A stretch of 64,000 nucleotides of DNA from Escherichia phage vB_EcoS_HASG4. The DNA lies in sequence record NC_100331.1; one strand, given 5' to 3'. The notes below the pieces were generated by a model. That model was not told the DNA's origin and did not search any database. It saw only the letters and a list, made by a program, of their open reading frames with translations. Position numbers and translations under genes: made by a program. Positions 9,113-64,000 of this stretch are shown in pieces (position 1 is the stretch's first letter; every line of letters starts with the position of its first letter).

Positions 9113-9385
9113 GTGAAAAAGATAAATATAAGTACACTTAAACCTTTTCCATATATCGGACAGCCTCTCATACTCATGTGGGAGGAAAAGATTAATGGGG
9201 AAAAGTATACTAAAACTAGAATTGGATATAAACTGATTTCACTTTATTACGAAAAAGAAGTATTAATAGCTGAAATATACTCTCCATTATCGGGCAGGCT
9301 AGTAAAAACTACATATTTGCATCTTTGCAAAAATTATACGTGGCACGGATCTACCAGACAACCCACGTACTATGAGGCAGAATAA
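9113..9385 (+). CDS. hypothetical protein
   Basis: ORF with GTG start right after the promoter/SD; no motif. Confidence 0.3.
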   Translation: MKKINISTLKPFPYIGQPLILMWEEKINGEKYTKTRIGYKLISLYYEKEVLIAEIYSPLSGRLVKTTYLHLCKNYTWHGSTRQPTYYEAE

Positions 9386-10357
9386 ATGACCAATGTAAAA
9401 GAATTTATTAAACGCTGTCAAGAAGCATATTATCAGGGTATGTCTTTAATCTCTGATGAGGAGTATGATTGCCTGGTAAAACGCTTCCCGTTAGAAGAAG
9501 AGATCGGGCCTAAGGGCGATATTCCACATCTGTATCGTATGTATTCTTTACAGAAAGTTTATTATAATCGTGGAGATAAACCCCCATTTAACCCATTAGG
9601 TCAGGTAGAAACTGACAAGTTAGATGGTTGTGCGATTTCTCTATTATATATTAATGGCGAATTTGTTCAAGCACTAACTCGTGGTAATGGTATTCTAGGG
9701 AATGATGTCACAAGCAACGTAAGACTGCTGAATATCCCTAAAAAGATTTCCCAAAAAGTACCAACTCAAATCACTGGTGAAGTTCTAATTACAAAAGAAG
9801 TAGAAAATAAACGTAACTTTGCCTCTGGTGCTATTAACCTCAAAGATAGCGATGATTTCGTACAACGTATCGGGGAAGGCGGTTTAATCTTCGTTGCATA
9901 CGGTATCCAGTGTTCTGCCGAATCTGTAGGTATTACAGAATCGTATTTAAAAGATATGCTTTGGCTAGAGAATGAGAACTTCTTAACAGTTGTTAATGTG
10001 CGTTCCTTCTTTAAATGGATTCCGACTGACGGTAAAGTTGTTCGTATTAATGACAACAACAAATTCTTCCGTGAGGGCTGGACAAATAAATTCCCTCGTG
10101 GAGCATTCGCCATTAAAGAGGATGAAGAAGGCGAAATTACAACTCTTACTAAAGTTGAGTGGCAGGTAGGGGCTTCTGGTAAAGTAACTCCAGTTGGCTA
10201 TTTCGAACCGGTAATTATTGATGATGCTACAATTGTTAAAGCGACTCTTAATAACGTTGATTATATTAACTCTCTCGATCTAGAGATCGGTTGCCAGATT
10301 CGAGTGATTCGTGCTGGTGGTGTAATCCCGTGTATAGTAGAGCGAGTATACGATTAA
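9386..10357 (+). CDS. NAD-dependent DNA ligase, N-terminal (adenylation/OB) subunit
   Basis: ETDKLDGCAIS carries the KxDG adenylation-lysine motif of LigA-type ligases; length fits the nucleotidyltransferase plus OB domains only. Confidence 0.75.
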   Translation: MTNVKEFIKRCQEAYYQGMSLISDEEYDCLVKRFPLEEEIGPKGDIPHLYRMYSLQKVYYNRGDKPPFNPLGQVETDKLDGCAISLLYINGEFVQALTRGNGILGNDVTSNVRLLNIPKKISQKVPTQITGEVLITKEVENKRNFASGAINLKDSDDFVQRIGEGGLIFVAYGIQCSAESVGITESYLKDMLWLENENFLTVVNVRSFFKWIPTDGKVVRINDNNKFFREGWTNKFPRGAFAIKEDEEGEITTLTKVEWQVGASGKVTPVGYFEPVIIDDATIVKATLNNVDYINSLDLEIGCQIRVIRAGGVIPCIVERVYD

Positions 10358-48930: not shown

Positions 48931-50247
48931 TTATTTACCACGGGAAATAGAGTAAATTCCATAGCGCAGCGCATCACAAAGGTGAGAGTTAGCATCATGA
49001 CGTGGTTTTTCACGCGATAATTTCTCTTCACCTTCTTGGAAGTCCCACTTATAGTTCTGCAATGCATGAATTAAGGAGGAACATGAGGCATCCACAATAA
49101 TCTTACCCTGCTGGAATAACGCTTGCAAGCATGCTAGACCATCTAGGACAGATTTTTTAGCTGGAGCCGATGCAATTTCATGCTCATAAGCTAAGTCCTG
49201 GCGGAACTGAGCTGCTGCAGAGTCAACAAAAATACGATCAACTTTATAACGATCTATACAATGCTGAATATAAGCAGCATGCTGAGCTGTAGTTTTCTCC
49301 GCCTGCTGGTATTCTTCTAATACATAGTAAGTATCCGTATCGTAATGATATTTAATAGTAAGAACTGCTGTAGGGTCACGATAACCAACGTCAATACCAA
49401 GCAACGTTTCGAATGCTTCATCATCTTTAAAGAAGTGACGCATACCTTTGAGGTCTTTAACATGATCGATAGCATTAAAGGTATCAAAGATCTGGCCTTC
49501 GAATACAGAGAAGTCAGCCTCGTATTCCTGGCGGAAGTAGTTTTTACTAACTGTACGACGTGCTTCCTCAATGTCATTCAGATCAGCACGAGGATTATCA
49601 CGGTATGTACCATGAATAGACACCCAGTTAGGCAACGTATCATCAAATCCGTAGGCGTAAAACTCTTTAAACCAGTTACCTCCACGAGGTGTGGAAATAA
49701 ATAGAGCTTTAGAATTAGGTTTATCTAGAGTAGGACGCAGCTGAACCCTAAAAGCATCACCACCCACATCGGAAATTGCCGCCTCGTCAAAGATGATAAA
49801 ATCATACGAACGTCCAACTGCGGAGTCAGCCTGAGCCGCGGAAGCTAGTTTAAATAGAGAACCATTAGCTAACTCAATCTCTTTATCTTTAGCGTTTTCA
49901 CGTTCGGTTTGTAGACCATACTTCTTAATAAGACCACGAATCTGAGACCATCCGATATTGGCCAGTGAGTAGTTAGGGGCAACTACTAGTACCTTCACAT
50001 TAGGTTCCAGCAATTTTAGGAACCCAAGTGTATACGCTATAAAAGATTTACCTACACGACGTGATACACACGCCGTTACAAAACGATGTCTAGGGTCTTC
50101 TAGGGCATTGATAATTGCTATTTGAGGGCCGTTAGGTGTAATACCCTCTTGTGCTAATATTCCAGAAACAGGTAGACGGAAGAAACGTTTGTCTATTCCG
50201 AAATCAATAACATCTACTGTATTAACATAGGGTCTTGATACTTCCAT
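48931..50247 (-). CDS. terminase large subunit
   Basis: Walker A VSRRVGKS, Walker B DFIIFDEAA, C-terminal RNaseH-like nuclease region; 438 aa. Confidence 0.85.
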   Translation of the reverse strand: MEVSRPYVNTVDVIDFGIDKRFFRLPVSGILAQEGITPNGPQIAIINALEDPRHRFVTACVSRRVGKSFIAYTLGFLKLLEPNVKVLVVAPNYSLANIGWSQIRGLIKKYGLQTERENAKDKEIELANGSLFKLASAAQADSAVGRSYDFIIFDEAAISDVGGDAFRVQLRPTLDKPNSKALFISTPRGGNWFKEFYAYGFDDTLPNWVSIHGTYRDNPRADLNDIEEARRTVSKNYFRQEYEADFSVFEGQIFDTFNAIDHVKDLKGMRHFFKDDEAFETLLGIDVGYRDPTAVLTIKYHYDTDTYYVLEEYQQAEKTTAQHAAYIQHCIDRYKVDRIFVDSAAAQFRQDLAYEHEIASAPAKKSVLDGLACLQALFQQGKIIVDASCSSLIHALQNYKWDFQEGEEKLSREKPRHDANSHLCDALRYGIYSISRGK

Positions 50248-50729
50248 TACTTTTTACCTCCAGTAGCTAGGGAAGTAATTAAGTCCATGTAGTTTTGGTC
50301 CCCAGCTCCAGCAATAATGTTATTCTGGATATTGGTCTGATTAGCAGGAGCACGGACAGCAGCTTTAGCTTTTTCTAACTCCACCATCATCTTCATCTCT
50401 TCCATCTTCATCTTGTGTGCTTTCCAGAGAATATCCATAATATCCTGGTCAGAACCCATGCCAGTTTCTTCTAGCTCCTCTAGTTTACGTTTAATAACTT
50501 CATCTAGAACACCGAACAAACGATCTCTGTTACGGAATCCACTCTCCATAAAAATATCATTTAAGTAGTTCTTAACTTCACTACGATTCATAATATCTCG
50601 GAAAGCAATTTCGGACATTCCAAGACTACGTGCGGCAGAAGGCACATCACTGCCACACTGTAAATAAGCTTCAATCACATCCATCCCTTCAGGGGACATA
50701 AGATCTGGTACTAAAACATCATTTGCCAT
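50247..50729 (-). CDS. putative terminase small subunit / DNA-binding protein
   Basis: 160-aa ORF immediately upstream of and overlapping the large terminase start; HTH-like [20 protein letters not shown]. Confidence 0.4.
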
Positions 50730-50739
50730 ATTTCCTCCT

Positions 50740-52500
50740 TTAGGTAAGGCGTTGAACTGTTACTCGTAGTCTCGGTAAGAAAACTGCTGAACCTAAACTA
50801 ACGTGTAGTATAACACCTAATTCTGCATTACCATTACCAAGATTTTTTATTGTATATATAAAACTGTTTCTACTAAAAGCTCCGCTATCTGGGGTATATT
50901 TATAAGCAGAGGTAGTATGGAAAGGTACTAACTTTCCGGGAGGAAGAACTAAAATTTGATGAAATATAGCATCTCCTCCTGTATAACTTTGTGATTTTCT
51001 TCCTTGCACCTGAAAAACACTACCATTCCACGTATTTACTGGTAACCCAGCAACATTAAGGTTACCCGATAATATTTCACTAGTTAATATAACAGTAGAG
51101 TTATTATTTGGCAGACCTAATCCAACTGTTGCTAGGGGTTTATAAACATTACCCGTGCCTGGGTATGTCGGAGTAATATCGTTACCAATATAGGCGCTAG
51201 CCACATTACCAGATAATAGGCGTAAAGGTACTGATGAAGGTCCCCAGACAACACCATTCTCATTACCAATAGTATTATTATTAGAGTTTACATACCAAGT
51301 TTTACTAGCAGAGAACTTATAAATACTAAGTTGTGCTCTTGTACCACTATAGTTGACGGGTGCCCAGATAGATCCTTTATTGGAACATACAAATTCACAT
51401 CTTCCAGTAGTATCCCCAAACACCCCACCATGAGCAGCGTTTACTCCAATATACTCCATATCAGCACGAGAAGTTAGATTTCCTAAAGCATTCTGGTTAA
51501 TAAACTTCCAACCAGTAGTAGATAACTTAACCCCCTTAATAGTAAAGTTGGACGGAGAAATTATTATATCAGAACCCGTGAAAGGGTTACTAGAAACAGA
51601 CATACCACCGTTAGAATACCTTAGGTTCAGTACATACCATATAACTTTTGTAGGTGTTACTCCGTAGCCATCTTGAACTATTTTTGTATTAGCTGATTGA
51701 CTTACTAACTTAGTAGTAGAGCCTCTACAAACATATCTATACCCCCCATCACTAAAGTGCTGTACTATATTGCTAGGAATTGTTTGTTTGTATCCAGCAT
51801 ATCCCCTAATGTTAGAATTACATACATAAAACCAGTTATGGCCACGTTTACCAGCCCCCATTGGAGCCATCCAGTTAGGATCCCAATAGTACGTATCACC
51901 TGAAGATATAGGAACAGAAGTACTTCCTATAGGATACCCTAGTTGTTTGAAGGTTTCAGCTACAGTAGCACCTACAGGTGCACCACCCCCTGGTCTTACA
52001 ACACCATGGTAAGTACTATGTAGTACAGTACCACCTGTACCACTCCTAGCTATAGATTCTTCATGCCCTAGGGAACTATTATAGGAATAAGTACCTGAAG
52101 CTAGACTATTACCAAAAGCAAATCCAGCAGTTTGACTTAAACTAGCAAATGATCTAAAAGGGTCGGCCTGGGTGGAGGAAAGAAATTGCCCAACTTGAGA
52201 TTGAGTACCATTCAAAAAACCACGATGAGTACCATTAACTTCTATAGCTGTTAGTATAACCCTACCAGGATCATTGCTCTTTAGGTTAGCTATTACAGAA
52301 GGCATTTGGCATACAAAGAACCCATTACCCGCATTACTTAATGCACTCTCATAAGTGCTTTCTACTAATACGAAGGGCATATCAGAATGAAAAATAGTAT
52401 TAGTACTAGGGTTTTTATGAGCATTAATATCTCCACCACTAGCAGTATTTAGTGATAATACAGTTTTACCATCACTATATTTTCCAGCGAAAAAACCCAT
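50740..52500 (-). CDS. receptor-binding tail protein (pb5-like)
   Basis: 586-aa ORF divergent from the llp-like lipoprotein gene, the T5-type RBP/Llp arrangement as I recall it. Confidence 0.5.
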
Positions 52501-52525
52501 ATAATCTCCTATTATAAAAATGTAT

Positions 52526-52585
52526 TTGCTTTTATCTCTCTATTTTGCTATAATAGACTCATAAATTAGAAATGGAGAGATAAAT
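52526..52585 (+). promoter_or_regulatory. strong promoter for the lipoprotein gene (T5-like family)
   Basis: TTGCTT-N17-TGcTATAAT (52549-52554), then AGACTCATAAATTAGAAATGGAGAG. Confidence 0.5.
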
Positions 52586-52852
52586 ATGAAAAAGTTTGTG
52601 ATTGCACTAGTTGCCGCAGTTATGTTATCTGGTTGTGCACCAGCCCCCAAACCATTTTGTACGGGGTTTGTAAAATCTTTTGGTGGTGCGGGAGAGGAAC
52701 ATTACGGCCTCAAGGTTCAAAAAGTTCGTATTAAGGGAGATCGCTTTCCAGTAGTACAGCTCCGTACTAAATTTGGGTGGTGGGATCTCAGTCAGTTTGA
52801 TCTTAAATATGGTGATTGTAAATTTAAACTAGAGCAATCTAATTACCTGTAA
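52586..52852 (+). CDS. llp: lipoprotein, Llp-like (receptor-blocking superinfection exclusion)
   Basis: Signal peptide plus lipobox MKKFVIALVAAVMLSGC; small size; adjacent and divergent to the RBP gene. Confidence 0.6.
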   Translation: MKKFVIALVAAVMLSGCAPAPKPFCTGFVKSFGGAGEEHYGLKVQKVRIKGDRFPVVQLRTKFGWWDLSQFDLKYGDCKFKLEQSNYL

Positions 52853-53028
52853 TTAGTATAAAGCAAAAAGACATCCAAGTAAACTAAATTTTTTATTTCT
52901 TGGATGGTGTACTGGCAGAAACCACTATATGAGAAAAGTTGAAGTCCTTCTAGGAGTTCACAGGCACGGTTGGTTGTGCACAAATTACAGAATATTTCAA
53001 ATACCACATTTATAGGAGCATGAAAGAT

Positions 53029-53157
53029 ATGTCAAACAAAAGAAAGAGCAGACGTGGAGAAGTGTATGAGAGTTGGATAAATAGTTTTGGGTTCGGAACT
53101 ATCCTATTCTTTATTTTCGTAGGCTTTTGGTTAGCAGCTATGGCGGGGTGGATTTAA
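53029..53157 (+). CDS. small membrane protein 1 (42 aa)
   Basis: TAGGAG SD 10 nt upstream; basic N-terminus then one hydrophobic helix; stop overlaps next start (TAATG). Confidence 0.35.
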   Translation: MSNKRKSRRGEVYESWINSFGFGTILFFIFVGFWLAAMAGWI

Positions 53158-53264
53158 TGGAATGGGTAATTATTGCACTACTAGGGATTGTGATTATTGG
53201 GCAATGTATTTTAGATAATCACTTAGCTAGAATTGAGACCTTATTATTGGAGAAACGTAAATGA
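53157..53264 (+). CDS. small membrane protein 2 (35 aa)
   Basis: One hydrophobic helix (MEWVIIALLGIVIIG); overlapping stop/start with both neighbours. Confidence 0.3.
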   Translation: MEWVIIALLGIVIIGQCILDNHLARIETLLLEKRK

Positions 53265-53455
53265 TGGAAGTGGCAGCTACACTAATAGTAATACTAGTCT
53301 GGGCAATTTTCATTGTTTCTTATACCGCGTATGTTCGCCTAAAAACTCTAGAGGCCCAGGTAAAGCAGCAACAATTTGCTATAGAAAAATTAGTAGAACT
53401 GCAACGTTGTGATAGTACCCGTATTCTGCAAATTGAGAGGGAATTAGATGTTTAG
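53261..53455 (+). CDS. small membrane protein 3 (64 aa)
   Basis: N-terminal TM helix then coiled-coil-like tail; overlaps neighbours. Confidence 0.35.
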   Translation: MMEVAATLIVILVWAIFIVSYTAYVRLKTLEAQVKQQQFAIEKLVELQRCDSTRILQIERELDV

Positions 53456-53693
53456 TATTATAATTGCTTTTATTATCGGGATACTCGCGGGAGTTTTCGG
53501 AATGACTGCGGCAATCAATAAGCATCGTAAATATATTGCGGAAGTATCGCGGGAGATTGCGGAAAGGGAGCGGAAGTTTGACGAGAAACGTGCGGAGTTT
53601 GAGCGGGAGTGGTCGGATGGTTCTCGGGCGTCGCGGAAGAGGTTTCGTGAGTTCAGACCAGAACACAGGTTTGATGACCCTTCTATGCGCTAA
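53448..53693 (+). CDS. small membrane protein 4 (81 aa)
   Basis: N-terminal TM helix then highly charged Arg/Glu-rich tail (REIAERERKFDEKRAEFEREW). Confidence 0.35.
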   Translation: MFSIIIAFIIGILAGVFGMTAAINKHRKYIAEVSREIAERERKFDEKRAEFEREWSDGSRASRKRFREFRPEHRFDDPSMR

Positions 53694-53858
53694 TTGGGAA
53701 ATCTCGAAATTTCATAAGATTACACATGGAGGTGTGCTCACTGCCTCCGGCGGAAATACTTAGTCTGCTAACCGCCACCCTCCGTTACTATTACCATGCT
53801 AACTGTTTCACCCTGCAACCATTTTAATTGCAAGGTGAAACAATTTCAACTTTAATTG

Positions 53859-54593
53859 TTAGGCAACTTTTAATTTCTCAATATATTGTTGCGGGCTGCA
53901 ACTATATTCTGCGCGTTCTTCCTCGGTCATACTTTCCCAACATAATTGCAGGCGGTCGGCTAGAAATTGATAATCATTATCATCCTCAAGAGATTCATCA
54001 ATAAAGGTTTCACCTATCAATGTAACCCCAATCGATAGAATATCGTTAATAGCTTGCGCGTCCAGCGTTTTAAATCCGTATGATGCCGCCGCTGATAGTA
54101 CGCCTTTATGATCATCAATCATCGTAAAATCAGCGTTAGGATATAACTGTTTAAATAGCTCAAAATAATGGCTTTTATAAATAGCGTCTTTACTGTGGTA
54201 TATTTCGCTAACTTTATCAGCTTCAAAATATTTGTGTAGTGTATCGCGGGAAAACACGCGGATATTGCTTTTATCACGACCGCGCAAGCCTTGTTTGCGC
54301 AAGAAATAATAATCCGACTTGCTCATCAATCGAGCGGTGCAAATAATGTTTAACGTGTTAACGTCATTCATGCACTGGCGCATATATGTAACAAGCGGCA
54401 ATAGTGTATCTTGCATTATTAAATCATGTTTGCAGGCTTCATTTTTATACTTATTTAAATCTAAATTGCCCTCACTATCAAAGCAAGGCGCTACACGATG
54501 GAAAGAGTTAATGATAGTGCCATCCAGATCCCAAATCATGACGCGGGAAATATGTGGGAAGCTGCGGGAAATATTCATAATAGCTTTATTCAT
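53859..54593 (-). CDS. dmp: HAD-family 5'-deoxyribonucleotidase (dmp-like)
   Basis: N-terminal MIWDLDGTIINS carries HAD motif I DxDGT; 244 aa, the size I recall for T5 Dmp. Confidence 0.6.
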   Translation of the reverse strand: MNKAIMNISRSFPHISRVMIWDLDGTIINSFHRVAPCFDSEGNLDLNKYKNEACKHDLIMQDTLLPLVTYMRQCMNDVNTLNIICTARLMSKSDYYFLRKQGLRGRDKSNIRVFSRDTLHKYFEADKVSEIYHSKDAIYKSHYFELFKQLYPNADFTMIDDHKGVLSAAASYGFKTLDAQAINDILSIGVTLIGETFIDESLEDDNDYQFLADRLQLCWESMTEEERAEYSCSPQQYIEKLKVA

Positions 54594-54672
54594 TTGTTAC
54601 GTTCTCCATTAAAGGGATTAGATTAATTCAGCATTACCCGCTATTTATAAGCGGGTAATAATAAATTAACTA

Positions 54673-55068
54673 TTAAAGACCATAAGCCAACGCATCAGCG
54701 ATAAAACTAACATCCTCACCGGATACGCTGGAACGAATCCCGGCACAAGTATATACCTTTGCGCTGATCAATTGATCATCGAGGCAAGCGGGGCAAGGCG
54801 CAACCACTGCGAAAGCTAAACCGGATTTTACCGCGTCAATAATAATTGTTTCCTGCTTCATCGTGTCAACATAAACACCTTTTGCTTTAATATGGCTGGT
54901 TAGTTTACCTTGCATATATGCAAACGTTGTAACTTGCATTGCATCATTGAAATCTAACAATTCATCAATAACGTGCCCCGCCTCGACGTGGTAACGTTCA
55001 CCATTAGAATAAACCAGAACAATGGAAGACTGAGCGCGGTCAAATGGAATGCGATTAGATTTAGCCAT
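54673..55068 (-). CDS. hypothetical protein
   Basis: Intact ORF with the conserved leader upstream; contains HVE and PCPAC but with non-canonical spacing. Confidence 0.4.
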   Translation of the reverse strand: MAKSNRIPFDRAQSSIVLVYSNGERYHVEAGHVIDELLDFNDAMQVTTFAYMQGKLTSHIKAKGVYVDTMKQETIIIDAVKSGLAFAVVAPCPACLDDQLISAKVYTCAGIRSSVSGEDVSFIADALAYGL

Positions 55069-55105
55069 GTTTATAACTCCAGTTAGTTTAATAAGGGGGT
55101 TTAAT

Positions 55106-55363
55106 TTACTTGATAATAATCTGCATTTGATATGGCGTTAATTCACCATTTACGGGTAAATTATTATCACTCAACCACTCATAAAAAGCGTCATCATCGT
55201 CAAAGGGAACAATATCATTATCACGATAATCGACCGTAATAATCCCATCTGTATTAGTTTTGGCGGCTAGGATAGGTCCGAAGCTGTAAACTTTATCGGA
55301 TTCCATTTCATCCGGTGAAATAAATGCTTTTTCGTCCAGCGTTTTGGGTAATGTAACTTTCAT
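55106..55363 (-). CDS. hypothetical acidic protein
   Basis: 85-aa ORF, Asp-rich. Confidence 0.35.
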   Translation of the reverse strand: MKVTLPKTLDEKAFISPDEMESDKVYSFGPILAAKTNTDGIITVDYRDNDIVPFDDDDAFYEWLSDNNLPVNGELTPYQMQIIIK

Positions 55364-55420
55364 TCTAATTTAGCTCCTGTAATAGCGGCTATATTTCAAG
55401 CCGCTAGGGGAATAATTTAA

Positions 55421-57085
55421 TTACGCGAAAAATTTACCATTCTTAAAGTCAATCAAGGTGCGCTGACCGTTTGCATAGGTAATAACATGCGTTTGTGTCC
55501 AGCTTGACGCGCCAACGTTATAACCCATGTCCAGACTACCAGACACGCCAGCGGTGTATACGCCGCCGTAAATACTGGCGGTATGAGTGTGCCCCGTGTT
55601 TAATTTGCCCAATTTCTTAAACTGTTTCGGATTGCCACGGCTGCCGTTTATGCCGTTGTGACCGTGTACGCCGCATTCAATGCCTGCAATCTTGAAAGAT
55701 TGATCAGTGGTCAGAAAAATAGCGTTAAACTCACAACCTGCAACCTTACGCAGCGCATAATCTAGCACGTTGAAAGTATCGTCTTTTTCTGCAATAGCTC
55801 CATAAATCGCAGCATTAAGGCGGTGATATAGTTCCGCGTTTGCTGGGTCGTCTTTAATGTTAGCATTACGATCATCCAGCCAACGGGATAGCGCCAAATC
55901 GTGGTTTGATTCAACAATGATCGTTTGAGCAAAATCGCGCTCCATCGATTCCAGCACGCGCCCGGTATCGATAAGATCATCCAGAACTTTATCACGTCCG
56001 GCGGCGTATTGTTTCGCTAGGAATACACCGGAGGCACGATTATGATGATTGCGTGATGTAAAATCATGCACGTCATGGACGAATTGATATTTTGGCTTGA
56101 GAATATCAAGCAAGCTATTTTCCCCAGCCCATGATGCAACGGCGCAAGCGTCATCCAATTTTTCGGCGTGGACGTCGCCATATTGTAAACCTAAAACGTG
56201 CCCCGATGTTTCATAGCATCCGGCGGGAGTAGCGCAAACATTCAGATCATAAAATACGCCGCTTTCATCCATCGTTTCAAGCTGGCGAACAAAAAATTCT
56301 CCGTCTTCGTCGAACTCGACAATAAGCGCACCGAAGTTATGCAGCGCCTCGGCCTTTTGTCCTGCTTTCTGCTGGATGTAGTTTTTTAACGTTGCCGTTC
56401 CGGTTGAATACATACGGCGCACAATTTCACCTTTTAAAGCTGGCACGCTTTCAGCGGTAATTTTAGCCGCTCCGATTGCCAGACCTTCGAGATTAAGCGC
56501 GGTTGCAGTTTCAGCGAATCCAGAAAGCGGATAATCTGCGGTGGGCAAAACATTAATTTCAGCCATGAAAGCAAAACGGCGATTGTTTAAAAATACGTTT
56601 TTGCTGCAAATATATTTATCAAACGCAGAATCATATTTGATTCCGTCTGCCCCTTCCCCATTTTGAAAACCGTTTTTATTATAAATATACTTAGAAACAA
56701 GCAAATCAGCGCCAATAAATTGGGCATATTGTTCAAGCGAGGCTAAAAAGTTTTTATGCGGGAAAGTATTATTCTGAATCGATGTAATAATAAAGCGTTT
56801 GCCTTGTTTTACTTCCCATTGCTCCACCGTGCTAGAAATAACTCCAGCGGCTTCAGGGCGGTCATCGTTTTTTATGGCTTTTGCTGTTTTTGCCGCTTTT
56901 GGTTTCGCTGGTTTATTTGCTTCCAACCAGTCGCAGATAGCGGTCGAGTGTTTTGTAGTATCGTATACCGCTTTTGATATATCGTCGCAGACTTCCAGTT
57001 TAGTAGCGCGCAGACGTTTACCATAGAAATTAAAGTCAGCGGCAAGGTTGAGAATCTGGGCTTGTTTTTCTGCGGAAATAATCAT
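55421..57085 (-). CDS. A1: A1-like pre-early protein, calcineurin-like metallophosphoesterase
   Basis: Phosphoesterase-type motifs GDVH, SNHD, GHTHT; 554 aa, close to what I recall for T5 A1; conserved leader upstream. Confidence 0.6.
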   Translation of the reverse strand: MIISAEKQAQILNLAADFNFYGKRLRATKLEVCDDISKAVYDTTKHSTAICDWLEANKPAKPKAAKTAKAIKNDDRPEAAGVISSTVEQWEVKQGKRFIITSIQNNTFPHKNFLASLEQYAQFIGADLLVSKYIYNKNGFQNGEGADGIKYDSAFDKYICSKNVFLNNRRFAFMAEINVLPTADYPLSGFAETATALNLEGLAIGAAKITAESVPALKGEIVRRMYSTGTATLKNYIQQKAGQKAEALHNFGALIVEFDEDGEFFVRQLETMDESGVFYDLNVCATPAGCYETSGHVLGLQYGDVHAEKLDDACAVASWAGENSLLDILKPKYQFVHDVHDFTSRNHHNRASGVFLAKQYAAGRDKVLDDLIDTGRVLESMERDFAQTIIVESNHDLALSRWLDDRNANIKDDPANAELYHRLNAAIYGAIAEKDDTFNVLDYALRKVAGCEFNAIFLTTDQSFKIAGIECGVHGHNGINGSRGNPKQFKKLGKLNTGHTHTASIYGGVYTAGVSGSLDMGYNVGASSWTQTHVITYANGQRTLIDFKNGKFFA

Positions 57086-57183
57086 GGTAATAAAACTCCA
57101 TTAAAGGGATTAAAAAACGTTTGTTATTGGCAAATATTGCCAAATATAACGCCTATTATTTGAGGCGTTATAATTTGCAATAT

Positions 57184-57399
57184 TTAACTAATCGGCATCA
57201 GGCTAGAACTAACACCACAAGCAACGGCGGCAATAAAACAAATAAGACCTAAACGCTTTGCTAACTTAGATTTACGTTTAAAATAATATGAATCCAGATC
57301 ATTTTGGAAATAAGCAAACAATAACGAGGCCGCTACAATAAATAATCCTAGAATGAGGGATTCAGTAGGGTAAAAGATCATTTTAATAACTCCAGTCAA
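57184..57399 (-). CDS. small membrane protein (two hydrophobic segments)
   Basis: 71-aa ORF between the A2-like and A1-like genes. Confidence 0.35.
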   Translation of the reverse strand: MTGVIKMIFYPTESLILGLFIVAASLLFAYFQNDLDSYYFKRKSKLAKRLGLICFIAAVACGVSSSLMPIS

Positions 57400-57437
57400 A
57401 GGAAATTATAGTGGGGAGTATTCCCCACTAATTAAAT

Positions 57438-57845
57438 TTATTCACCTGCGGCCTGTTTTACTTCATCGGCAACGCCCAATAGTTGCGCCACGGCGTCCAA
57501 CGTTTCTAATTTTGCGCTTTCCAGTGATGCCAGATCGTCAACGTCTTTGATAATACCGGAATCGATGGCATGTTTTGCAATAACGCGCACATAATGCGCT
57601 TTGCGGATAGAACTGCCGCCGCCAACCTTGCGAGGTTTATCGCTTTTCTGATACGCTTTCGCGCTGGTCAATTTTGAGCGAACGGACACGGGAGAAGCCG
57701 CACCTACTGCTTTCGCGATCTCTTTCAAGCCGTCGCTATTTGCGAAATCTAAACCGTTTTCATTGATTAGCTGCTGATACATGGTAACAGCCTGCTGGGT
57801 GTTTTCTTCATTCCAAGAAAATTTTACGGTTTTAACGTTAGTCAT
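57438..57845 (-). CDS. A2: A2-like pre-early protein
   Basis: 135-aa ORF immediately upstream of the A1-like gene; size and position match T5 A2 as I recall it. Confidence 0.45.
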   Translation of the reverse strand: MTNVKTVKFSWNEENTQQAVTMYQQLINENGLDFANSDGLKEIAKAVGAASPVSVRSKLTSAKAYQKSDKPRKVGGGSSIRKAHYVRVIAKHAIDSGIIKDVDDLASLESAKLETLDAVAQLLGVADEVKQAAGE

Positions 57846-57943
57846 GGTAAAAACTCCTATTAGTTTAATTTAAGGGATAAGATTAACATAATGTTAATCG
57901 TTATATACCCCGAACTACTGGGGTATATAAAGTTAACACTAAA

Positions 57944-58195
57944 TTACAAAACAGCTTCCCATTTTTCGTTGCGTTGAACAACCTTTACAACATCGCCGGA
58001 TTTAACGCGAACGCTAAAAACGGTTTTGCCGTTGTTACTGCGTTCCGTTTCAGCGTATACCGCGTCGATTGTATCGAACGGCATAAGCGCCGCACCTTTA
58101 ATGCGTTCGGCCTTTCCGGTTAACTCATCCGTTTTAGTAACGAAAGGAATAAAAACGGATTGACCAATTTTTGGCGCGGTAATAACGTTTTGCAT
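57944..58195 (-). CDS. hypothetical protein
   Basis: 83-aa ORF with the conserved leader and AGGAG SD. Confidence 0.4.
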   Translation of the reverse strand: MQNVITAPKIGQSVFIPFVTKTDELTGKAERIKGAALMPFDTIDAVYAETERSNNGKTVFSVRVKSGDVVKVVQRNEKWEAVL

Positions 58196-58422
58196 AGTAT
58201 AAACTCCTAGTTATTTGGGGATTATTCCGCATTACCTGCTAGAAGGTAGCAGGTAATAAGTAACAATCCGCTCGCCAGTTTAACCAATTTAAAGAACTCC
58301 ACGTAGGCCGCTATATCCCAGTTAGGGGGCGGGATGCATTATGGTAAGCACCGACCGTCAAATTTTATCAAGTTATCGCTCTTATCGAACTGAGTACATC
58401 TTAAAACCTATCGGCTAGGTTG

Positions 58423-58626
58423 TCAAACGGTTTTTTGCAATTTTTTATGATTTTCTTTCAAGTCAATCATAATATTTCGCCAGATCATTTCTAGACCTTG
58501 CTGGCGACCTCTCTTGTACTGCGTGAATCGGTATTTTACCGATCTTTGCGCTACTGTCAACAAATTTTTTGTTTTGCTATCTAGTGCCTTAATAGGCTTG
58601 CCAGTGATCAATAAAGTTTGTTTCAT
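58423..58626 (-). CDS. hypothetical small basic protein (uncertain)
   Basis: 67-aa ORF inside the large intergenic region; weak SD. Confidence 0.2.
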   Translation of the reverse strand: MKQTLLITGKPIKALDSKTKNLLTVAQRSVKYRFTQYKRGRQQGLEMIWRNIMIDLKENHKKLQKTV

Positions 58627-59256
58627 ATCGTCGATTCCTTATAATAGATAAGTTTACCGCCGATAGGCTTTAAGATGTACCCAATTTTTAAAGAGCGTGG
58701 CGGTAAACTTCCCGCCGTGTAGTTCGTCATTGCCGCCCTACGTGATAAATAATAGGGGATTCCCGAAAATGGCGCAACCTTATTTTTGTAAAGAAACGTA
58801 AAGACAAAATTCACCGGACGGCGTGCGGTGACGGCCTAAAATTAAAAGAAACGGGCGCGCGAATACCACAAAACAAAGCAAATAGGCAAGTAATTTTTTC
58901 ATTTATATTTGCTTTCCCCTACTTGACAAAATCTAAAAAGCTCGTGGTAGCGATAAACGGCTTATCCCCTTATGATGGGATGGCTAAAAACTTTATTGCG
59001 TTCTAGGGCGTTTTAGGCGGCTCATTTTCGATTTAACAAATATCTAACAAAAGCAAAATTGAAAAATAGTTGAAAAAGGTCTTGACTTTTAAAAATCAAG
59101 GGGCATTGCATTAATTTATAAAATAAATTAATTGACTTTTATTTGTTGTTGTGTATTAGAAAGATAGCAAACTAATAATTACTAGAATGATAATCATGCT
59201 GGTGGATTGTAACGGCTTAAATTATTAGCAGACTACTAATCCCGGAAAATCTCATT

Positions 59257-59310
59257 AGCCAACTAACTGTTTCATAAGTTATAATATACATATAAATTAA
59301 TGAGAAATAA
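59257..59310 (+). promoter_or_regulatory. promoter-like element of the T5 family (weak -35)
   Basis: GTTATAAT with TATAAT at 59280-59285, then ATACATATAAATTAATGAGAAA. Confidence 0.35.
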
Positions 59311-59419
59311 TAATTATAAGAAAACGTAACCGATAGGAATAATAACTATAAAAATAATCACTACTATAATAATAACTATAAGAAACTATCGGCCTAAGTG
59401 AGAACCACTATCATTTAAG

Positions 59420-59440
59420 TTATCCACAAAGTTATCCACA
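59420..59440 (+). promoter_or_regulatory. two perfect DnaA boxes (TTATCCACA) in direct repeat
   Basis: TTATCCACA at 59420-59428 and 59432-59440, just downstream of an AT-rich repeat tract. Confidence 0.6.
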
Positions 59441-59794
59441 GCACTTTTTGACTTGACACGATATGCGGCGATACAAGGACTTTTGCTCAGACTTACCCAC
59501 AGGTTATCCTACTGTATAAATATACAAGGTAAAAAGATAGTGTTAACAACTGCAATCAATTTTAAGCGGCCTAAATCGCTTTCTAACGAGCAAAACGCTG
59601 TAGGGTAATATTAAAGTAAAGCCTCAACGTGTCGGCCTGGTGGCTTCGCCGTGTTTTGCTCTTTACTATACCGCTGCGCGGTTAGCATAAAAATAAGCGT
59701 TAGGCAAGGAAAATAAAAAGGTAAAATAATATTTGCCCCTAGAAAGAAAATACCTTTATCATTCACTCACCGATTAACGAGGGAGGCCGAACAA

Positions 59795-60787
59795 ATGAGG
59801 CTTTATAAACCAGATAACGCAACCGTCTTAAAAGGTGCATTGCGCAACCTGCTGGATGGTAGCAGAACAACCAGCATTAAACATTTTGTTTTCAATATTG
59901 AAACACTTCATCGTAATTTTCTTGATGATTACGATGCTTATAATATGAATAGTTTTCTACCGTTATATAATCAAGGGGCAACGCTTGTTTTATATAATCA
60001 GGAATCTCACTTGCTTACTAGTCGAGGGCCAGATACTGATTTTATTATAGTGAAAGGCAGTACAGTAAAAGCCTATGATGCGGGGGCGGGCTTAGAAGTT
60101 TTCACGATAGAAAATTATGAGCCTTATGATAAGGATCTTTATGACGTAGAAAATTTTCTCGATTCATTTTGGCGTTATTTATCAATTGGGTGGAATCGGT
60201 CGGATTATGACGGGTATCGTTTTGCGGCTGTAATGGCTTTTGATGATAACGGTAATTTTTTGTTACCGTCGGAATTATACCCGTATGTATATAATGATTT
60301 AATAGAGGAGGCTGGTTTTACTTTCTGGAAAGATGAAGATCAGCCTATTGACAATATAGAAAACCATGCTGTAAATTCTAACACTCAAAGCGTTAACACT
60401 CAAACTACTGAAAACAAAGGAAAAAATACCATGACCAAGATCGCTAATATCGTTGCCGCTAATAAATCCGCTGTTGTAAATGCTGCAAAACTGGAAGCGG
60501 GTAAAATTGCACTGACTCAAATCACGAAAGTAGCGGCTAAAAAAGCGCCGTTTATGATTAAAGGTTATATTGATACGCCGATTGGTCGTGTAGTGATCGC
60601 TAACCTATTGAGTGTAGCGGTTGACCAGTACGCCCCAACTAACCAAAAGGCAAAAGCGGTAGCAGGCGCGGCTATGGAAGCGGCAATGCTGGAAATGGTG
60701 CAAAGTTTTAACATCGCTGAAATGATTGATGAAATGGTAAAAGGTATCGATATTTCTACTTTTACCACTAACACCGAAAGCGAGTAA
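59795..60787 (+). CDS. hypothetical protein
   Basis: 330-aa ORF with GAGG SD; first gene of a rightward cluster. Confidence 0.45.
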   Translation: MRLYKPDNATVLKGALRNLLDGSRTTSIKHFVFNIETLHRNFLDDYDAYNMNSFLPLYNQGATLVLYNQESHLLTSRGPDTDFIIVKGSTVKAYDAGAGLEVFTIENYEPYDKDLYDVENFLDSFWRYLSIGWNRSDYDGYRFAAVMAFDDNGNFLLPSELYPYVYNDLIEEAGFTFWKDEDQPIDNIENHAVNSNTQSVNTQTTENKGKNTMTKIANIVAANKSAVVNAAKLEAGKIALTQITKVAAKKAPFMIKGYIDTPIGRVVIANLLSVAVDQYAPTNQKAKAVAGAAMEAAMLEMVQSFNIAEMIDEMVKGIDISTFTTNTESE

Positions 60788-60852
60788 TAATATTTAGCGG
60801 GGATTATTTCCCCGCTTTACTATTCCCTTGTTAACTAATAGGAGGCTAACTA

Positions 60853-61347
60853 ATGGCTGAGGAAAAATACGGCTTCTCGCTAGGGGAAGTGAGCACGGCT
60901 AAACACGATATGATCATTTTAGTTGATTGTCATACTGGCTATTGCGGGGAAGGGAACACCGAAGAATATTTTGTTCCTGCTGGTACGGATCTGGACGCTT
61001 TAGCTCACGAAATGGCTATGGATAATGCTTCTCGTTTTGGCAGCGATGGCTATGAAGACGAGGATACTGGCGAATGGTATGAAAATGAAAACGTATACGC
61101 AAGTCTTTATCATTATCAGTTAAGTAAATCCGGCACATATGTAAATGGCGGCGATCCTATTAATTCCGTTGTGAAATTAATTATTAAATATGGTGGCGTC
61201 GAGATAATTGATAACAAAGCGGTAATATATGCAAACCGATTAAAACAGCTTGTTTATATTCCTGATAATACCCGATGGGAGGAATACGCTGTTTTGCATG
61301 ACGAATTGAAACGATGTTTCAATATTGAAGCCCTACAAGTAGTCTAA
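60853..61347 (+). CDS. hypothetical acidic protein
   Basis: 164-aa ORF with AGGAGG SD; Asp/Glu-rich. Confidence 0.45.
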   Translation: MAEEKYGFSLGEVSTAKHDMIILVDCHTGYCGEGNTEEYFVPAGTDLDALAHEMAMDNASRFGSDGYEDEDTGEWYENENVYASLYHYQLSKSGTYVNGGDPINSVVKLIIKYGGVEIIDNKAVIYANRLKQLVYIPDNTRWEEYAVLHDELKRCFNIEALQVV

Positions 61348-61452
61348 TGTAAAGTTTTGTAAAGGTCGCCTTTTATGGTGGCCTTTTTTGTTATAATGCC
61401 TTTACACCAAAACGGTGGATTGAAAATTTTCCCAAAAATTTGGAGGCTTAAA

Positions 61453-61683
61453 ATGGTTGCATACTCTTCTGCTAGTCATCTGTTTACCGCGCAAGGCTGG
61501 GTATCTAATCGCGTCATTATTCATGAAATGGTGCAGGAGTTCGGCATTGCTAAAACGTATAATACCATTCAGGAACTATATAACGCCGATAAAATCGATC
61601 AGCAAACGGCTGGCTTTTTGCTGGATACCCTGAAAGCTGAACATTGCACTAAAAAGCAAGCTGCAAAAATTGTCTTAATGTAA
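61453..61683 (+). CDS. hypothetical protein
   Basis: Internal ATG at 61453 with GGAGG SD; the track's 61375 start lacks an SD. Confidence 0.4.
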   Translation: MVAYSSASHLFTAQGWVSNRVIIHEMVQEFGIAKTYNTIQELYNADKIDQQTAGFLLDTLKAEHCTKKQAAKIVLM

Positions 61684-61736
61684 TTAATAACGGGGGGGGG
61701 GTATTATATCCCCCGATAACTAGGAGGCTATCACAA

Positions 61737-61886
61737 ATGGTTATTTTTCGAGCTATTTTAGCGGGTATCTTGGGCGCTATTTTATCGTTATTTGCAATAG
61801 CTTTCGGTGTTCACGCCGTTATTATCGGCGCGGGTATCGCCGCATTTTCTTATCTGCTGGGCTGCATGACTAGTAAAGGAGAATAA
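61737..61886 (+). CDS. small membrane protein (49 aa)
   Basis: TAGGAGG SD 9 nt upstream; two hydrophobic segments; preceded by a G10 tract. Confidence 0.4.
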   Translation: MVIFRAILAGILGAILSLFAIAFGVHAVIIGAGIAAFSYLLGCMTSKGE

Positions 61887-61888
61887 AA

Positions 61889-62101
61889 ATGATTCGTAAC
61901 GTTTCCCTTGCACGTTCGAAAGGCTTTAGGCTGGTGGACGTTAACACGTTCGAGCGTGAAGATTGTAAAATCGAATATGTAGCACGTAACAAAAATGCCT
62001 TTCGTGTTACTGAGAAAAAATTCGACAAGCGCGGCAACGTGATCGCTGAAACAGTTAAACATTTTGCCACCTTTTATGCTGCGTTTCGTGGGGTATTATA
62101 A
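61889..62101 (+). CDS. hypothetical protein
   Basis: 70-aa ORF with GGAG SD, immediately after the previous stop. Confidence 0.4.
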   Translation: MIRNVSLARSKGFRLVDVNTFEREDCKIEYVARNKNAFRVTEKKFDKRGNVIAETVKHFATFYAAFRGVL

Positions 62102-62102
62102 A

Positions 62103-62447
62103 ATGGTTATTTATGAAGGCAACCGCTTTGTTACTAATTGCCGTCCGGCATTACTAGCAAACTACTTAAATCAGCTTTCCCCAGCTTATAAGGGCGTTAT
62201 TAATATTTATGAGGGCAAGGCGCATTATAAAATCAATGCGGTCGTTGCCCGTGAACTAGCGTTTCAATTTTTGACCTTTGCATCTTGTGACGTTCAGGTC
62301 ATGGGTGAGGCATTAATTGCAGAAAATGAAGATGATTTTATTAATATTTTCCGCAAGATATGCACCGAGCGCCTGATCATGAAAGGCGCTTATATTCAAT
62401 CCACTGCGGATAGTATTGAAACAGCGTTTCGAAAGGTGGCACAATGA
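62103..62447 (+). CDS. hypothetical protein
   Basis: ATG at 62103 directly after the upstream stop; 114 aa. Confidence 0.4.
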   Translation: MVIYEGNRFVTNCRPALLANYLNQLSPAYKGVINIYEGKAHYKINAVVARELAFQFLTFASCDVQVMGEALIAENEDDFINIFRKICTERLIMKGAYIQSTADSIETAFRKVAQ

Positions 62448-62602
62448 AAAAGTTTTTAATAGCTGGTATGTTTCCTTTGTTGCCTTATGTAATTTGCTGG
62501 GCTTTATATGCTCATGGTGCTAGTGTTCCCGGTGTGGCTTCATTTGGTGTATCGGCTGGTTTTCTAACCGGACTATTGGCAAGCGTATATTTACGCAAAT
62601 AA
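62444..62602 (+). CDS. small membrane protein (52 aa)
   Basis: ATG overlapping the upstream stop; two hydrophobic segments. Confidence 0.35.
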   Translation: MKKFLIAGMFPLLPYVICWALYAHGASVPGVASFGVSAGFLTGLLASVYLRK

Positions 62603-62620
62603 TTAATAACGGGAGTTATT

Positions 62621-62824
62621 ATGAGCAATAAAATTATTGTAACCAAAATCAGTACAATGGTTGATGTTTTTTACGTGCCCGATACGCCGGAGAATCGGCA
62701 AGCGGTTGAGCGTGGCGAGTATGATAAAGTGATTTATGATCACGATGGTTATTATCAGCATTTGGCGGATTCCTACGGGGAGGAGGAAAAAATCACGCAT
62801 CGACTACCGGAGGAGGATTTATGA
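62621..62824 (+). CDS. hypothetical protein
   Basis: 67-aa ORF with GGGAG SD. Confidence 0.4.
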   Translation: MSNKIIVTKISTMVDVFYVPDTPENRQAVERGEYDKVIYDHDGYYQHLADSYGEEEKITHRLPEEDL

Positions 62825-62925
62825 AACGATGGTTTAATCACTGGTATAAACGGTTTTTAGTACGCCGTCGCAAGTCTAGGCATCAAGATGAGTGGAGGGA
62901 GTGGGCAAAGCGTAACGGTTGCCCA
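62821..62925 (+). CDS. hypothetical small basic protein (uncertain)
   Basis: 34-aa Arg/Trp-rich ORF overlapping the previous stop. Confidence 0.2.
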
Positions 62926-62975
62926 CTACTATAATAATCACGGGGCGCAACTAGTAAGAAGTGCCCCCAATTCTC

Positions 62976-62996
62976 AAATGAGAATCATTCTCATTT
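62976..62996. repeat. perfect 21-bp palindrome AAATGAGAATCATTCTCATTT
   Basis: Read directly; the two 10-bp arms are exact reverse complements around a central C. Confidence 0.8.
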
Positions 62997-63190
62997 GACC
63001 GCGCCCGCGATGATTAGCCTGCTAATGGTTAGGGTGTTACGTGTCGCCTTGTGTGATCGTTAGCGTGCTAACTAATTTTCAAGCCTCCTCCAATTTTCCC
63101 CTTGTTTTAGTATCCCCGCCAAAATTAAACGCGTTAGAATGCGATTCAGGACGTTTTAAGCCTATATTAGAATTATTCACTGCATAGGAA

Positions 63191-63210
63191 TACTGTATAT
63201 TTATACAGTA
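63191..63210. promoter_or_regulatory. LexA-box-like palindrome TACTGTATATTTATACAGTA
   Basis: Fits CTGT-N8-ACAG with an all-AT spacer; one mismatch to TACTGTATATATATACAGTA. Confidence 0.5.
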
Positions 63211-63222
63211 GAATAACCTGGG

Positions 63223-63301
63223 GATAAGTCTGTGGATAACGCTTCAAAATGGCTAGGGTTCTGTCAAGTCAAATCGTGCTGTTGATAAGTCTGTGGATAA
63301 C
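63223..63301. repeat. exact 18-bp direct repeat GATAAGTCTGTGGATAAC x2, each with a DnaA box (TGTGGATAA)
   Basis: Copies at 63223-63240 and 63284-63301. Confidence 0.75.
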
Positions 63302-63332
63302 TTAAATAACAGTGTTTCTCACTTCCGTTTTT

Positions 63333-63500
63333 AAATGCGAATCATTATCATTCGCATTTCACTAGCTAACCGATAATCACTCCACTTTTTAAATGAGAAT
63401 CATTTCACTTCTTGAATAGTTCTCATTCCCTTTCTTAAATGCAAATCATTATCATTCGCATTTCACTTTTTAAATGAGATTGATTCTCATTATCATTCGC
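63333..63500. repeat. cluster of palindromes built from AAATG(C/A)GAAT half-sites
   Basis: AAATGCGAATCATTATCATTCGCATTT (63333-63359), AAATGAGAA...TTCTCATT (63391-63427), AAATGCAAATCATTATCATTCGCATTT (63437-63463), AAATGAGATTGATTCTCATT (63472-63491). Confidence 0.75.
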
Positions 63501-63533
63501 ATTCAGGCGAGCAAGGCAATTGCCCTGCGCTTT

Positions 63534-63757
63534 TGTGCAAATCCGACATTTGCCCCCATGGATTACGCGTGGGCATGTATGTGCGAATCCGACAATTTTT
63601 GGTAGTGTGCAAATCCGACCCGAAAAATTTTTATAGTGTGCGAATCCGACAATGAATTTTCCTAAAAACTCCAGCAATCACGAACTGCGTTCGAATCCTG
63701 TGGAATTAGCTAGAGTATGTGCAAATCCGACATGTGTTGAGCTGTGCGAATCCGACA
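63534..63757. repeat. six direct 15-bp iterons TGTGC(G/A)AATCCGAC(A/C)
   Basis: Copies start at 63534, 63580, 63606, 63637, 63718, 63743; spacings 46, 26, 31, 81, 25 bp; a degenerate copy (CGTTCGAATCC) near 63690. Confidence 0.8.
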
Positions 63758-64000
63758 AGATTTTTGTGACTTCGATTGGAGGGTGTGTGATTGTATAGGT
63801 TTGAGGAGAAGATGAGAGAGCGAGAGAAATTTTGGGACTAGAAGGATGTGGGCGCAAGATTGGTGCGGAGCACCTGATTTGCGGGGATTTTGGGGGAGAG
63901 TTGAGATAATTTGGGAAGATTTGAGATAGGTGCAGAAAAAGTAAAATTTTATTAGCTAAATGGAGCAAAATAGCTTGACAAGTGAAAATTCTTGTGGCTC

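Follow-up and report, generated by a model that had tools for sequence, protein, structure and literature searches.

Direct repeats with DnaA-type boxes near the right end of Escherichia phage vB_EcoS_HASG4 and their correspondence to the injection-stop region of phage T5

What is the role of a short sequence that stands twice, letter for letter, a few hundred base pairs from the end of a phage genome and that carries in each copy a box of the type bound by the host protein DnaA? The question is raised by a 64,000-nt stretch of Escherichia phage vB_EcoS_HASG4 (NC_100331.1; the whole of the analyzed stretch is hereafter called the window), in which an earlier note, made from the letters alone, had pointed out an exact 18-bp direct repeat at a distance of 61 bp with a DnaA box in reverse orientation in each copy, and had counted, together with further boxes at 59.4 kb, at least four strong DnaA sites in a pre-early-like region. 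Our analysis identifies this feature, almost certainly, as the direct repeat B (DRB) of the injection-stop (iss) region of phage T5. The halt of T5 DNA injection at 8% of the genome and its subsequent restart have been a question for 60 years, and the one molecular model of these events that is now current has the boxes at its center.

Both copies of the 18-mer GATAAGTCTGTGGATAAC were recovered as exact matches on the + strand, at 63223-63240 and 63284-63301, which places them 61 bp apart start to start with a 43-bp gap between them, and at 91% identity the repeat reaches a length of 23 nt (63218-63240 and 63279-63301). The reverse orientation of the boxes was likewise borne out, as TGTGGATAA, contained in both 18-mers, is the 9-mer TTATCCACA on the - strand (63231-63239 and 63292-63300). 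The repeat and its DnaA-type boxes are real and lie far beyond chance: with up to three mismatches allowed, GATAAGTCTGTGGATAAC has four matches in the window against 0.09 expected, perfect TTATCCACA boxes occur exactly four times against 0.64 expected, and in neither case did any of 100 shuffles reach four. Among the four matches to the 18-mer, one lies on the opposite strand at 59419-59436, and a three-mismatch match at 5129-5146, which is without a box pair, is probably a chance occurrence. All four perfect boxes sit at 59420-59440 and 63231-63300, within two inverted elements.

The boxes are arranged in pairs, each copy of the repeat being a same-direction tandem of two DnaA-type 9-mers separated by a 3-bp spacer. 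The first pair on the - strand consists of TTATCCCCA (63219-63227; one mismatch) and a perfect TTATCCACA (63231-63239; position R1b), and the second, also on the - strand, of TTATCAACA (63280-63288; position R2a, one mismatch) and a perfect TTATCCACA (63292-63300; position R2b); the one-mismatch box 3 bp upstream of the perfect box in each repeat had previously been missed. Both pairs are enclosed in a 131-nt element on the + strand at 63194-63324, which is the right-hand arm of the structure, is composed of inverted repeat D', a spacer and inverted repeat C' (IRD'-spacer-IRC'), and represents the core of the T5-type iss region in its right-terminal-repeat copy. Its left-hand inverted partner, IRC-spacer-IRD, lies ~3.7 kb away at 59396-59526 (+), between the divergent pre-early operons, and the two are 87% complementary. 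The partner contains two perfect TTATCCACA boxes on the + strand (59420-59428 and 59432-59440) and, in addition, TTACCCACA (59493-59501) with the degenerate TTTTGCTCA (59481-59489; position L1b, in the IRD arm).

The overall layout is therefore one of eight box positions in four 3-bp-spaced pairs, distributed over two inverted 131-nt elements. The perfect boxes meet the DnaA-box consensus TT(A/T)TNCACA, and the other four positions deviate from it by one to three bases. With respect to the four strong sites that had been counted, the four perfect consensus 9-mers do exist, over-represented and clustered, and the association with the boxes at 59.4 kb is right as to position; their strength, however, is a prediction from the match to the consensus, and they are members of a paired, eight-position array rather than isolated sites. 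The 131-nt inverted repeat that encloses both copies of the direct repeat, and of which the 59.4-kb site is the partner, had escaped the earlier note, as had the fact that the whole structure is the annotated injection-stop region of T5.

The evidence for this last identity comes from the T5 GenBank record AY587007 (Wang et al. 2005), in which 'direct repeat B copy 1' (9357-9379) and 'copy 2' (9418-9440), each 23 nt long and 61 bp apart, correspond in ungapped alignment to 63218-63240 and 63279-63301 on the + strand of the window. The same record annotates 'inverted repeat D'' (9332-9372), 'inverted repeat C'' (9424-9462) and 'palindrome D' (9330-9349), as well as the partners inverted repeat C (6022-6060) and inverted repeat D (6112-6152). 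The features of the T5 right-hand element map one-to-one onto the window at an offset of +53861, positions 63150-63340 are 93.7% identical to T5 9289-9479 over 191 nt (blastn), and both elements of the window align with those of T5 free of gaps across 145 columns. The two phages share the 23-nt repeat at 61 bp, the 3-bp-spaced pairs, palindrome D, the upstream inverted partner, and the downstream direct repeats C and D (DRC and DRD). They differ in that perfect TTATCCACA boxes stand in both DRB copies here, hence the exact 18-mer, whereas copy 1 of T5 has TTATCAACA; furthermore, the degenerate eighth box is TTTTGCTCA in this phage (L1b, IRD arm) and TTATACATT in T5 (L2a, IRC), where it results from a 2-bp deletion.

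The genomic setting agrees with that of T5. The 1.1 kb around the repeat shows 100% identity with Escherichia phage vB_EcoS_EASG3 (Tequintavirus, Demerecviridae) and matches 443 phage records, nearly all from T5-like phages whose hosts are Salmonella and Escherichia. Positions 50000-64000 match the final 14 kb of EASG3, a 120,715-bp linear record, at 97.8% and reach its last base, which makes the window the right-hand end of a T5-like genome and puts the repeat inside the right terminal repeat. The presence of the element here follows from the duplication of the terminal repeat; its identical counterpart should stand in the left terminal repeat, and the EASG3 record matches the repeat region in two places. 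With ~700 bp between it and the end of the window, which is also the genome end, the element stands past the rightward pre-early operon, where the terminal repeat ends in non-coding sequence, and the T5 iss element, at 9332-9462 of a 10139-bp repeat, occupies a comparable place relative to the repeat end.

Neither the repeat nor its DnaA reading is new, and both are unremarkable in phages of this group: the T5 GenBank record already has an annotation for the repeat, and earlier work describes the boxes and compares them among T5-like phages. The T5 repeat region was reportedly also described by Wang in 2005 and by Davison in 2015. A report of 1987 (Heusterspreute et al., Gene 52:155, per 10.1101/866236) already placed DnaA boxes in IRD'-spacer-IRC', and Davison described in 2020 the eight boxes, in pairs 3 bp apart with a constant 52-bp spacer, and compared them across T5-like phages (10.1101/866236). 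In the same work, membrane-bound DnaA was proposed to occupy the boxes and thereby to halt first-step transfer at iss until A1 and A2 bring about its release (10.1101/866236). What the present re-analysis adds is quantitative support for the view that the boxes evolve like DnaA boxes, the invariance of the 61-bp register, the generic occurrence of the 3-bp tandem in unrelated viral contigs, and a conserved near-consensus LexA box within the element.

To compare the element among relatives, 40 related loci were gathered through the A2 protein (64 to 99% identity), which yielded ~30 distinct right and 29-30 distinct left elements. Both elements are present in all 40 loci, and in none of the 59-60 distinct elements does the distance from pair to pair depart from 61 bp. 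Conservation of the two copies in relatives, which had been named as a check on the DnaA interpretation, thus holds for the elements; exact identity over 18 bp is confined to this phage and its close relatives. Across 236 boxes, the least information is carried by position 5 (the N of TTWTNCACA); at position 3 only A and T occur, and hardly any variation is seen at positions 1, 2, 4, 8, and 9, a substitution pattern that appears largely to follow the Schaper-Messer degeneracy of DnaA boxes, position 6 excepted. The commonest variant is the exact DnaA consensus at six of the eight box positions. R1b is perfect in seven of 30 distinct relatives, most of which carry TTATTAACA or TTATCAACA instead; R2b is perfect in 24 of 30, and R2a never matches the consensus, so that each right-hand pair comprises a strong box beside a weak one.

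The left and right copies within a genome are 74-82% identical, whereas right copies of different genomes are mostly 86.6-97% identical to one another (75-77% for the three most distant loci, L040-L042), which indicates that the two copies are maintained separately. The positions that the left and right consensus sequences share fall on palindrome D, a linker, the two box pairs, parts of the spacer (TGTCAA..TCA and GTGCTG) and a 25-nt block that follows the boxes, and the concentration on the palindrome, box pairs, and post-box block is as expected for protein-binding cores. The post-box block CTTAAATAACAGTGTTTCTCACTTC, at 63301-63325 (+) directly after the second pair and at 59396-59420 in the left partner, is the most conserved stretch of the element, with a mean column conservation of 0.98 in right and 0.91 in left copies; 21 of its 25 positions are common to the left and right consensus, it is invariant in the most distant relatives, and it matched none of the host-factor consensus sequences tested.

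The tandem arrangement is not restricted to T5-like phages. A perfect TTATCCACA-N3-TTATCCACA tandem was found in more than 120 IMG/VR contigs at the least, and among the first 80 tandem loci listed, none resembles the T5 region, 45 have at least three boxes within 300 bp, 15 have at least five, and GAC, the spacer of the T5-like phages, is one of the three commonest spacers. The occurrence of the tandem in unrelated contigs marks it as a generic DnaA-box architecture rather than a T5-specific one, which supports the DnaA reading. As a separate observation, four loci on unrelated uncultivated viral contigs contain clusters of eight to 11 DnaA boxes, the perfect 3-bp tandem included (L059 at ~3860, L096 at ~6104, L104 at ~1886, and L120 at ~7964), and these clusters adjoin a conserved protein of 128 aa whose N-terminus resembles an AT-hook (KRGRGRPKK...AAIINEYKARMLASPKS); they appear to belong to another phage lineage with a DnaA-box cluster.

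Close boxes in the same orientation, strong beside weak, as for cooperative filling by DnaA, are also the arrangement of the E. coli oriC arrays and of the tandem boxes of the basal unwinding system (BUS; PMC8287927). Unlike these, the phage element has no DnaA-trios, AT-rich unwinding element, GATC cluster, or adjacent replication genes, and it stands in two mutually inverted copies on either side of a gene cassette. Non-origin DnaA-binding loci of E. coli are known in datA and DARS, which the element resembles as a non-origin box cluster that would bind DnaA without initiating replication; it differs from them in that no IHF consensus site was found in it, in its lack of homology to E. coli genomes, and in its location on a virulent phage.

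A second candidate host-protein site lies 8 bp to the left of the first box pair. The palindrome TACTGTATATTTATACAGTA at 63191-63210, which is the T5 'palindrome D' of 9330-9349, agrees with the LexA-box consensus TACTGTATATATATACAGTA in 19 of its 20 positions, and none of 100 shuffles produced a match within three mismatches. The operator consensus of LexA, the regulator of the SOS response, is TACTG(TA)5CAGTA. In the left-hand palindrome D, TACTGTATAAATATACAAGG at 59510-59529, the agreement is 16 of 20 and one arm has changed here from ACAG to ACAA. Among the relatives, CTGT-N8-ACAG is intact in 28 of 30 distinct right and 23 of 29 distinct left copies, the most distant ones included. Palindrome D thus shares with LexA operators the CTGT-N8-ACAG core and 19 of 20 consensus positions, but differs from them in belonging to a virulent phage and in having no recognizable promoter overlap, the only overlapping promoter-like matches being weak and non-enriched. 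Were LexA to bind, it could link the SOS state of the host to the pausing and restarting of transfer or to the expression of pre-early genes. T5 itself triggers the SOS state through A1-dependent degradation of the host DNA.

The conserved near-consensus LexA box in the iss element is possibly a new observation. LexA and SOS are not mentioned in the Davison preprint (10.1101/866236), and our literature search, outside of which lay the full texts of the 1987, 2005, and 2015 papers, retrieved no paper that ties LexA to T5 first-step transfer and, within the T5 literature that it covered, no reference to either LexA or Fur. A minor feature of the palindrome is that its center (63200-63201) is TT in 16 and AA in nine distinct right copies of the relatives, which amounts to an inversion of the palindrome; gene conversion between the inverted elements is one possible origin of this flip, and free variation at a center under no constraint is another.

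Given these properties, the explanation that we consider best, and to which we give even chances of being right as a whole, is that the DRB/iss element is a module for the host proteins DnaA and LexA that takes part in pausing DNA transfer. The element would act as a binding module, its perfect TTATCCACA boxes binding host DnaA with high affinity and the flanking one-mismatch boxes filling cooperatively, with palindrome D probably bound by LexA. Under the hypothesis of Davison (2020), the copy in the left terminal repeat would enter the cell first and its boxes would be captured by membrane-associated DnaA; the DnaA-bound element and its partner element might then form a nucleoprotein complex that pauses transfer at ~8% of the genome, a pause that the pre-early proteins A1 and A2 would release. 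The parts of this explanation are not equally secure. Judging from the box sequences, binding of DnaA to the perfect boxes in vitro is very probable; that such binding matters to the phage is as plausible as that it does not; and a role specifically as the injection stop is doubtful.

Several points weigh against this explanation. In T5, the end of first-step transfer, mapped approximately by shear at ~9618, is found to the right of the element at a distance of 150-290 bp (Davison), and the DRC, DRD, and direct repeat E (DRE) repeats are equally conserved and could be the true stop signal. By what means a protein seated on DNA already inside the cell would stop further entry is not obvious. 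Some T5-like phages are without the left-hand element or some of its boxes (Davison Types 2-4; 10.1101/866236), and two papers, from 2023 and 2026, that repeat the description of the boxes state that experimental studies are lacking (PMC10644984, PMC13250531). With regard to the boxes themselves, position 6 is changed from C to A in 26% of them, mostly at R1b and R2a, although this position is specified in the consensus; considered together with the non-consensus R2a, this would make half of the right-hand element a weak binder at best. Finally, the compared sequences are phylogenetically related, and the counts given above are not independent.

A broader form of the host-protein explanation, which we regard as rather unlikely, is that the iss element is a composite landing pad for abundant host proteins in which a LexA operator, DnaA boxes, and Fur-like palindromes are combined, the LexA/DnaA part being duplicated in the inverted partner. 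Palindromes resembling the Fur box (at least 14 of 19 positions of GATAATGATAATCATTATC) number 15 in the window against 5.0 expected and a maximum of nine in 20 shuffles. Eight of the 15 are located in two non-coding repeat blocks (T5 palindromes C and E to I, annotated as palC and palE-palI, and DRC), and the best, with 16 of 19, is at 63476-63494. They occur at 62974-62996, 63331-63359, 63435-63463, 63476-63500, and 59183-59201, and the AT-rich palindromes and direct repeats of 63319-63503, such as AAATGCGAATCATTATCATTCGCATTT, which are equivalent to the T5 DRC/DRE and palE-palI, match the Fur consensus at 14-16 of 19 positions. This accumulation suggests that the iss region may collect sites for several host DNA-binding proteins.

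It is improbable, to our judgment, that the repeats are instead sites for a phage protein, most likely a DNA-binding A2 or A1/A2, that would restart transfer or cut or process the terminal repeat, with the likeness to DnaA boxes arising by coincidence or mimicry. The candidates for such a protein are encoded in the same terminal repeat, and the term 'pre-early-like region' of the earlier note is apt in that A1 and A2 are neighbors of the element. A1 (554 aa; 55421-57085, -) fits the chee24 'putative A1 protein' in size and position and lies where the EASG3 match carries the annotation 'A1 DNA transfer protein', and A2 (135 aa; 57438-57845, -) is 96% identical to the A2 of L022/L025 (121,750 nt, the length of T5), with 'A2 protein' also annotated in the chee24 and T5 records. 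Both genes are genetically required for second-step transfer (10.1101/866236). The preferences of another protein could also be reflected in R2a and most R1b, which depart from the consensus at a specified position yet are conserved as TTAT(C/T)AACA, a point that tells against DnaA as well. The remaining evidence speaks for a host factor: six of eight positions most often have the exact universal DnaA consensus, variation falls on the degenerate positions 3 and 5, and the same tandem occurs in many viral contigs that have no similarity to the region. The box motif, moreover, stays TTATCCACA without drift in relatives in which A2 is only 64% identical, which favors a constant host factor over a co-evolving phage protein. 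A Pfam search of A1 and A2 returned no DNA-binding domain, which is weak evidence, and for the neighboring genes it returned only families of the domain-of-unknown-function (DUF) type.

The rightward pre-early gene cassette (59795-62934, +) is bracketed by the two inverted elements, and the distance between the elements varies from ~1.5 to 3.9 kb among relatives; the cassette differs widely in size and content while the flanking 131-nt elements are kept. Such a pattern could be produced if the 131-bp elements were recombination boundaries for cassette swaps between co-infecting T5-like phages and the boxes were incidental, and Davison found the 3-kb coding region almost wholly unconserved. We nevertheless consider recombination boundaries a poor explanation of the element. 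Linkers for such swaps need neither inverted orientation nor consensus sites for host factors, the left and right copies have not been homogenized within a genome (74-82% identity), and the conservation is uneven, being focused on the palindrome, box pairs, and post-box block with an invariant 61-bp register.

Equally poor, in our estimation, is the classical view of iss, in which DNA structure alone, whether by intrinsic bending, by a cruciform at palindrome D, or by base pairing to the remote inverted copy, physically obstructs passage or serves as a mark for the pause. The region is indeed dense in palindromes and inverted repeats, and secondary structure is still listed as a candidate mechanism (PMC13250531). 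However, the direct repeats are not self-complementary, and pairing with the inverted partner, which lies 3.7 kb off and at a variable distance among relatives, is impossible in duplex DNA. Structure alone also leaves unexplained the exact matches to the DnaA and LexA consensus sequences and a base-specific conservation that is tolerant only at degenerate positions.

That the box cluster is a DnaA-dependent phage replication origin or a datA-like titration locus, as eight DnaA-type boxes in oriC-like pairing might suggest, has hardly any probability, given that there are no DnaA-trio runs beside the right-hand pairs and no match to the 13-mer of the DNA-unwinding element in the region, that GATC is depleted (0-1.15 per kb vs 3.06 per kb across the window), that the IHF consensus WATCAANNNNTTR does not occur in 59100-59800 or 62930-63800, and that T5 origins lie near the middle of the genome, with the replication genes absent during first-step transfer (10.1101/866236).

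Three further candidates were tried and rejected. A structured RNA received no Rfam match at E <= 0.1 in 58500-64000; promoter or terminator functions were set aside with 19 promoter-like sites against 16.3 expected, none of them consistently placed in both elements; and a host-derived sequence was dismissed after no match was obtained in 5,426 complete E. coli genomes.

Of the remaining features around the element, the first gene of the cassette encodes a 330-aa protein of the family DUF7566 (Pfam), and DUF7177 and DUF7416 are the families of the leftward genes at 57944-58195 and 58423-58626. Further to the right, beyond the element, TGTGC(A/G)AATCCGAC is present in six copies on the + strand within 63534-63756 at irregular spacings of 25-81 bp, the equivalent of the T5 'direct repeat D'. 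AY587007 annotates the copies of direct repeat D as well as a 'major single-stranded nick 1, 7.9%', and the copies stand at the boundary between first-step and second-step transfer, near the place of this 7.9% nick of T5.

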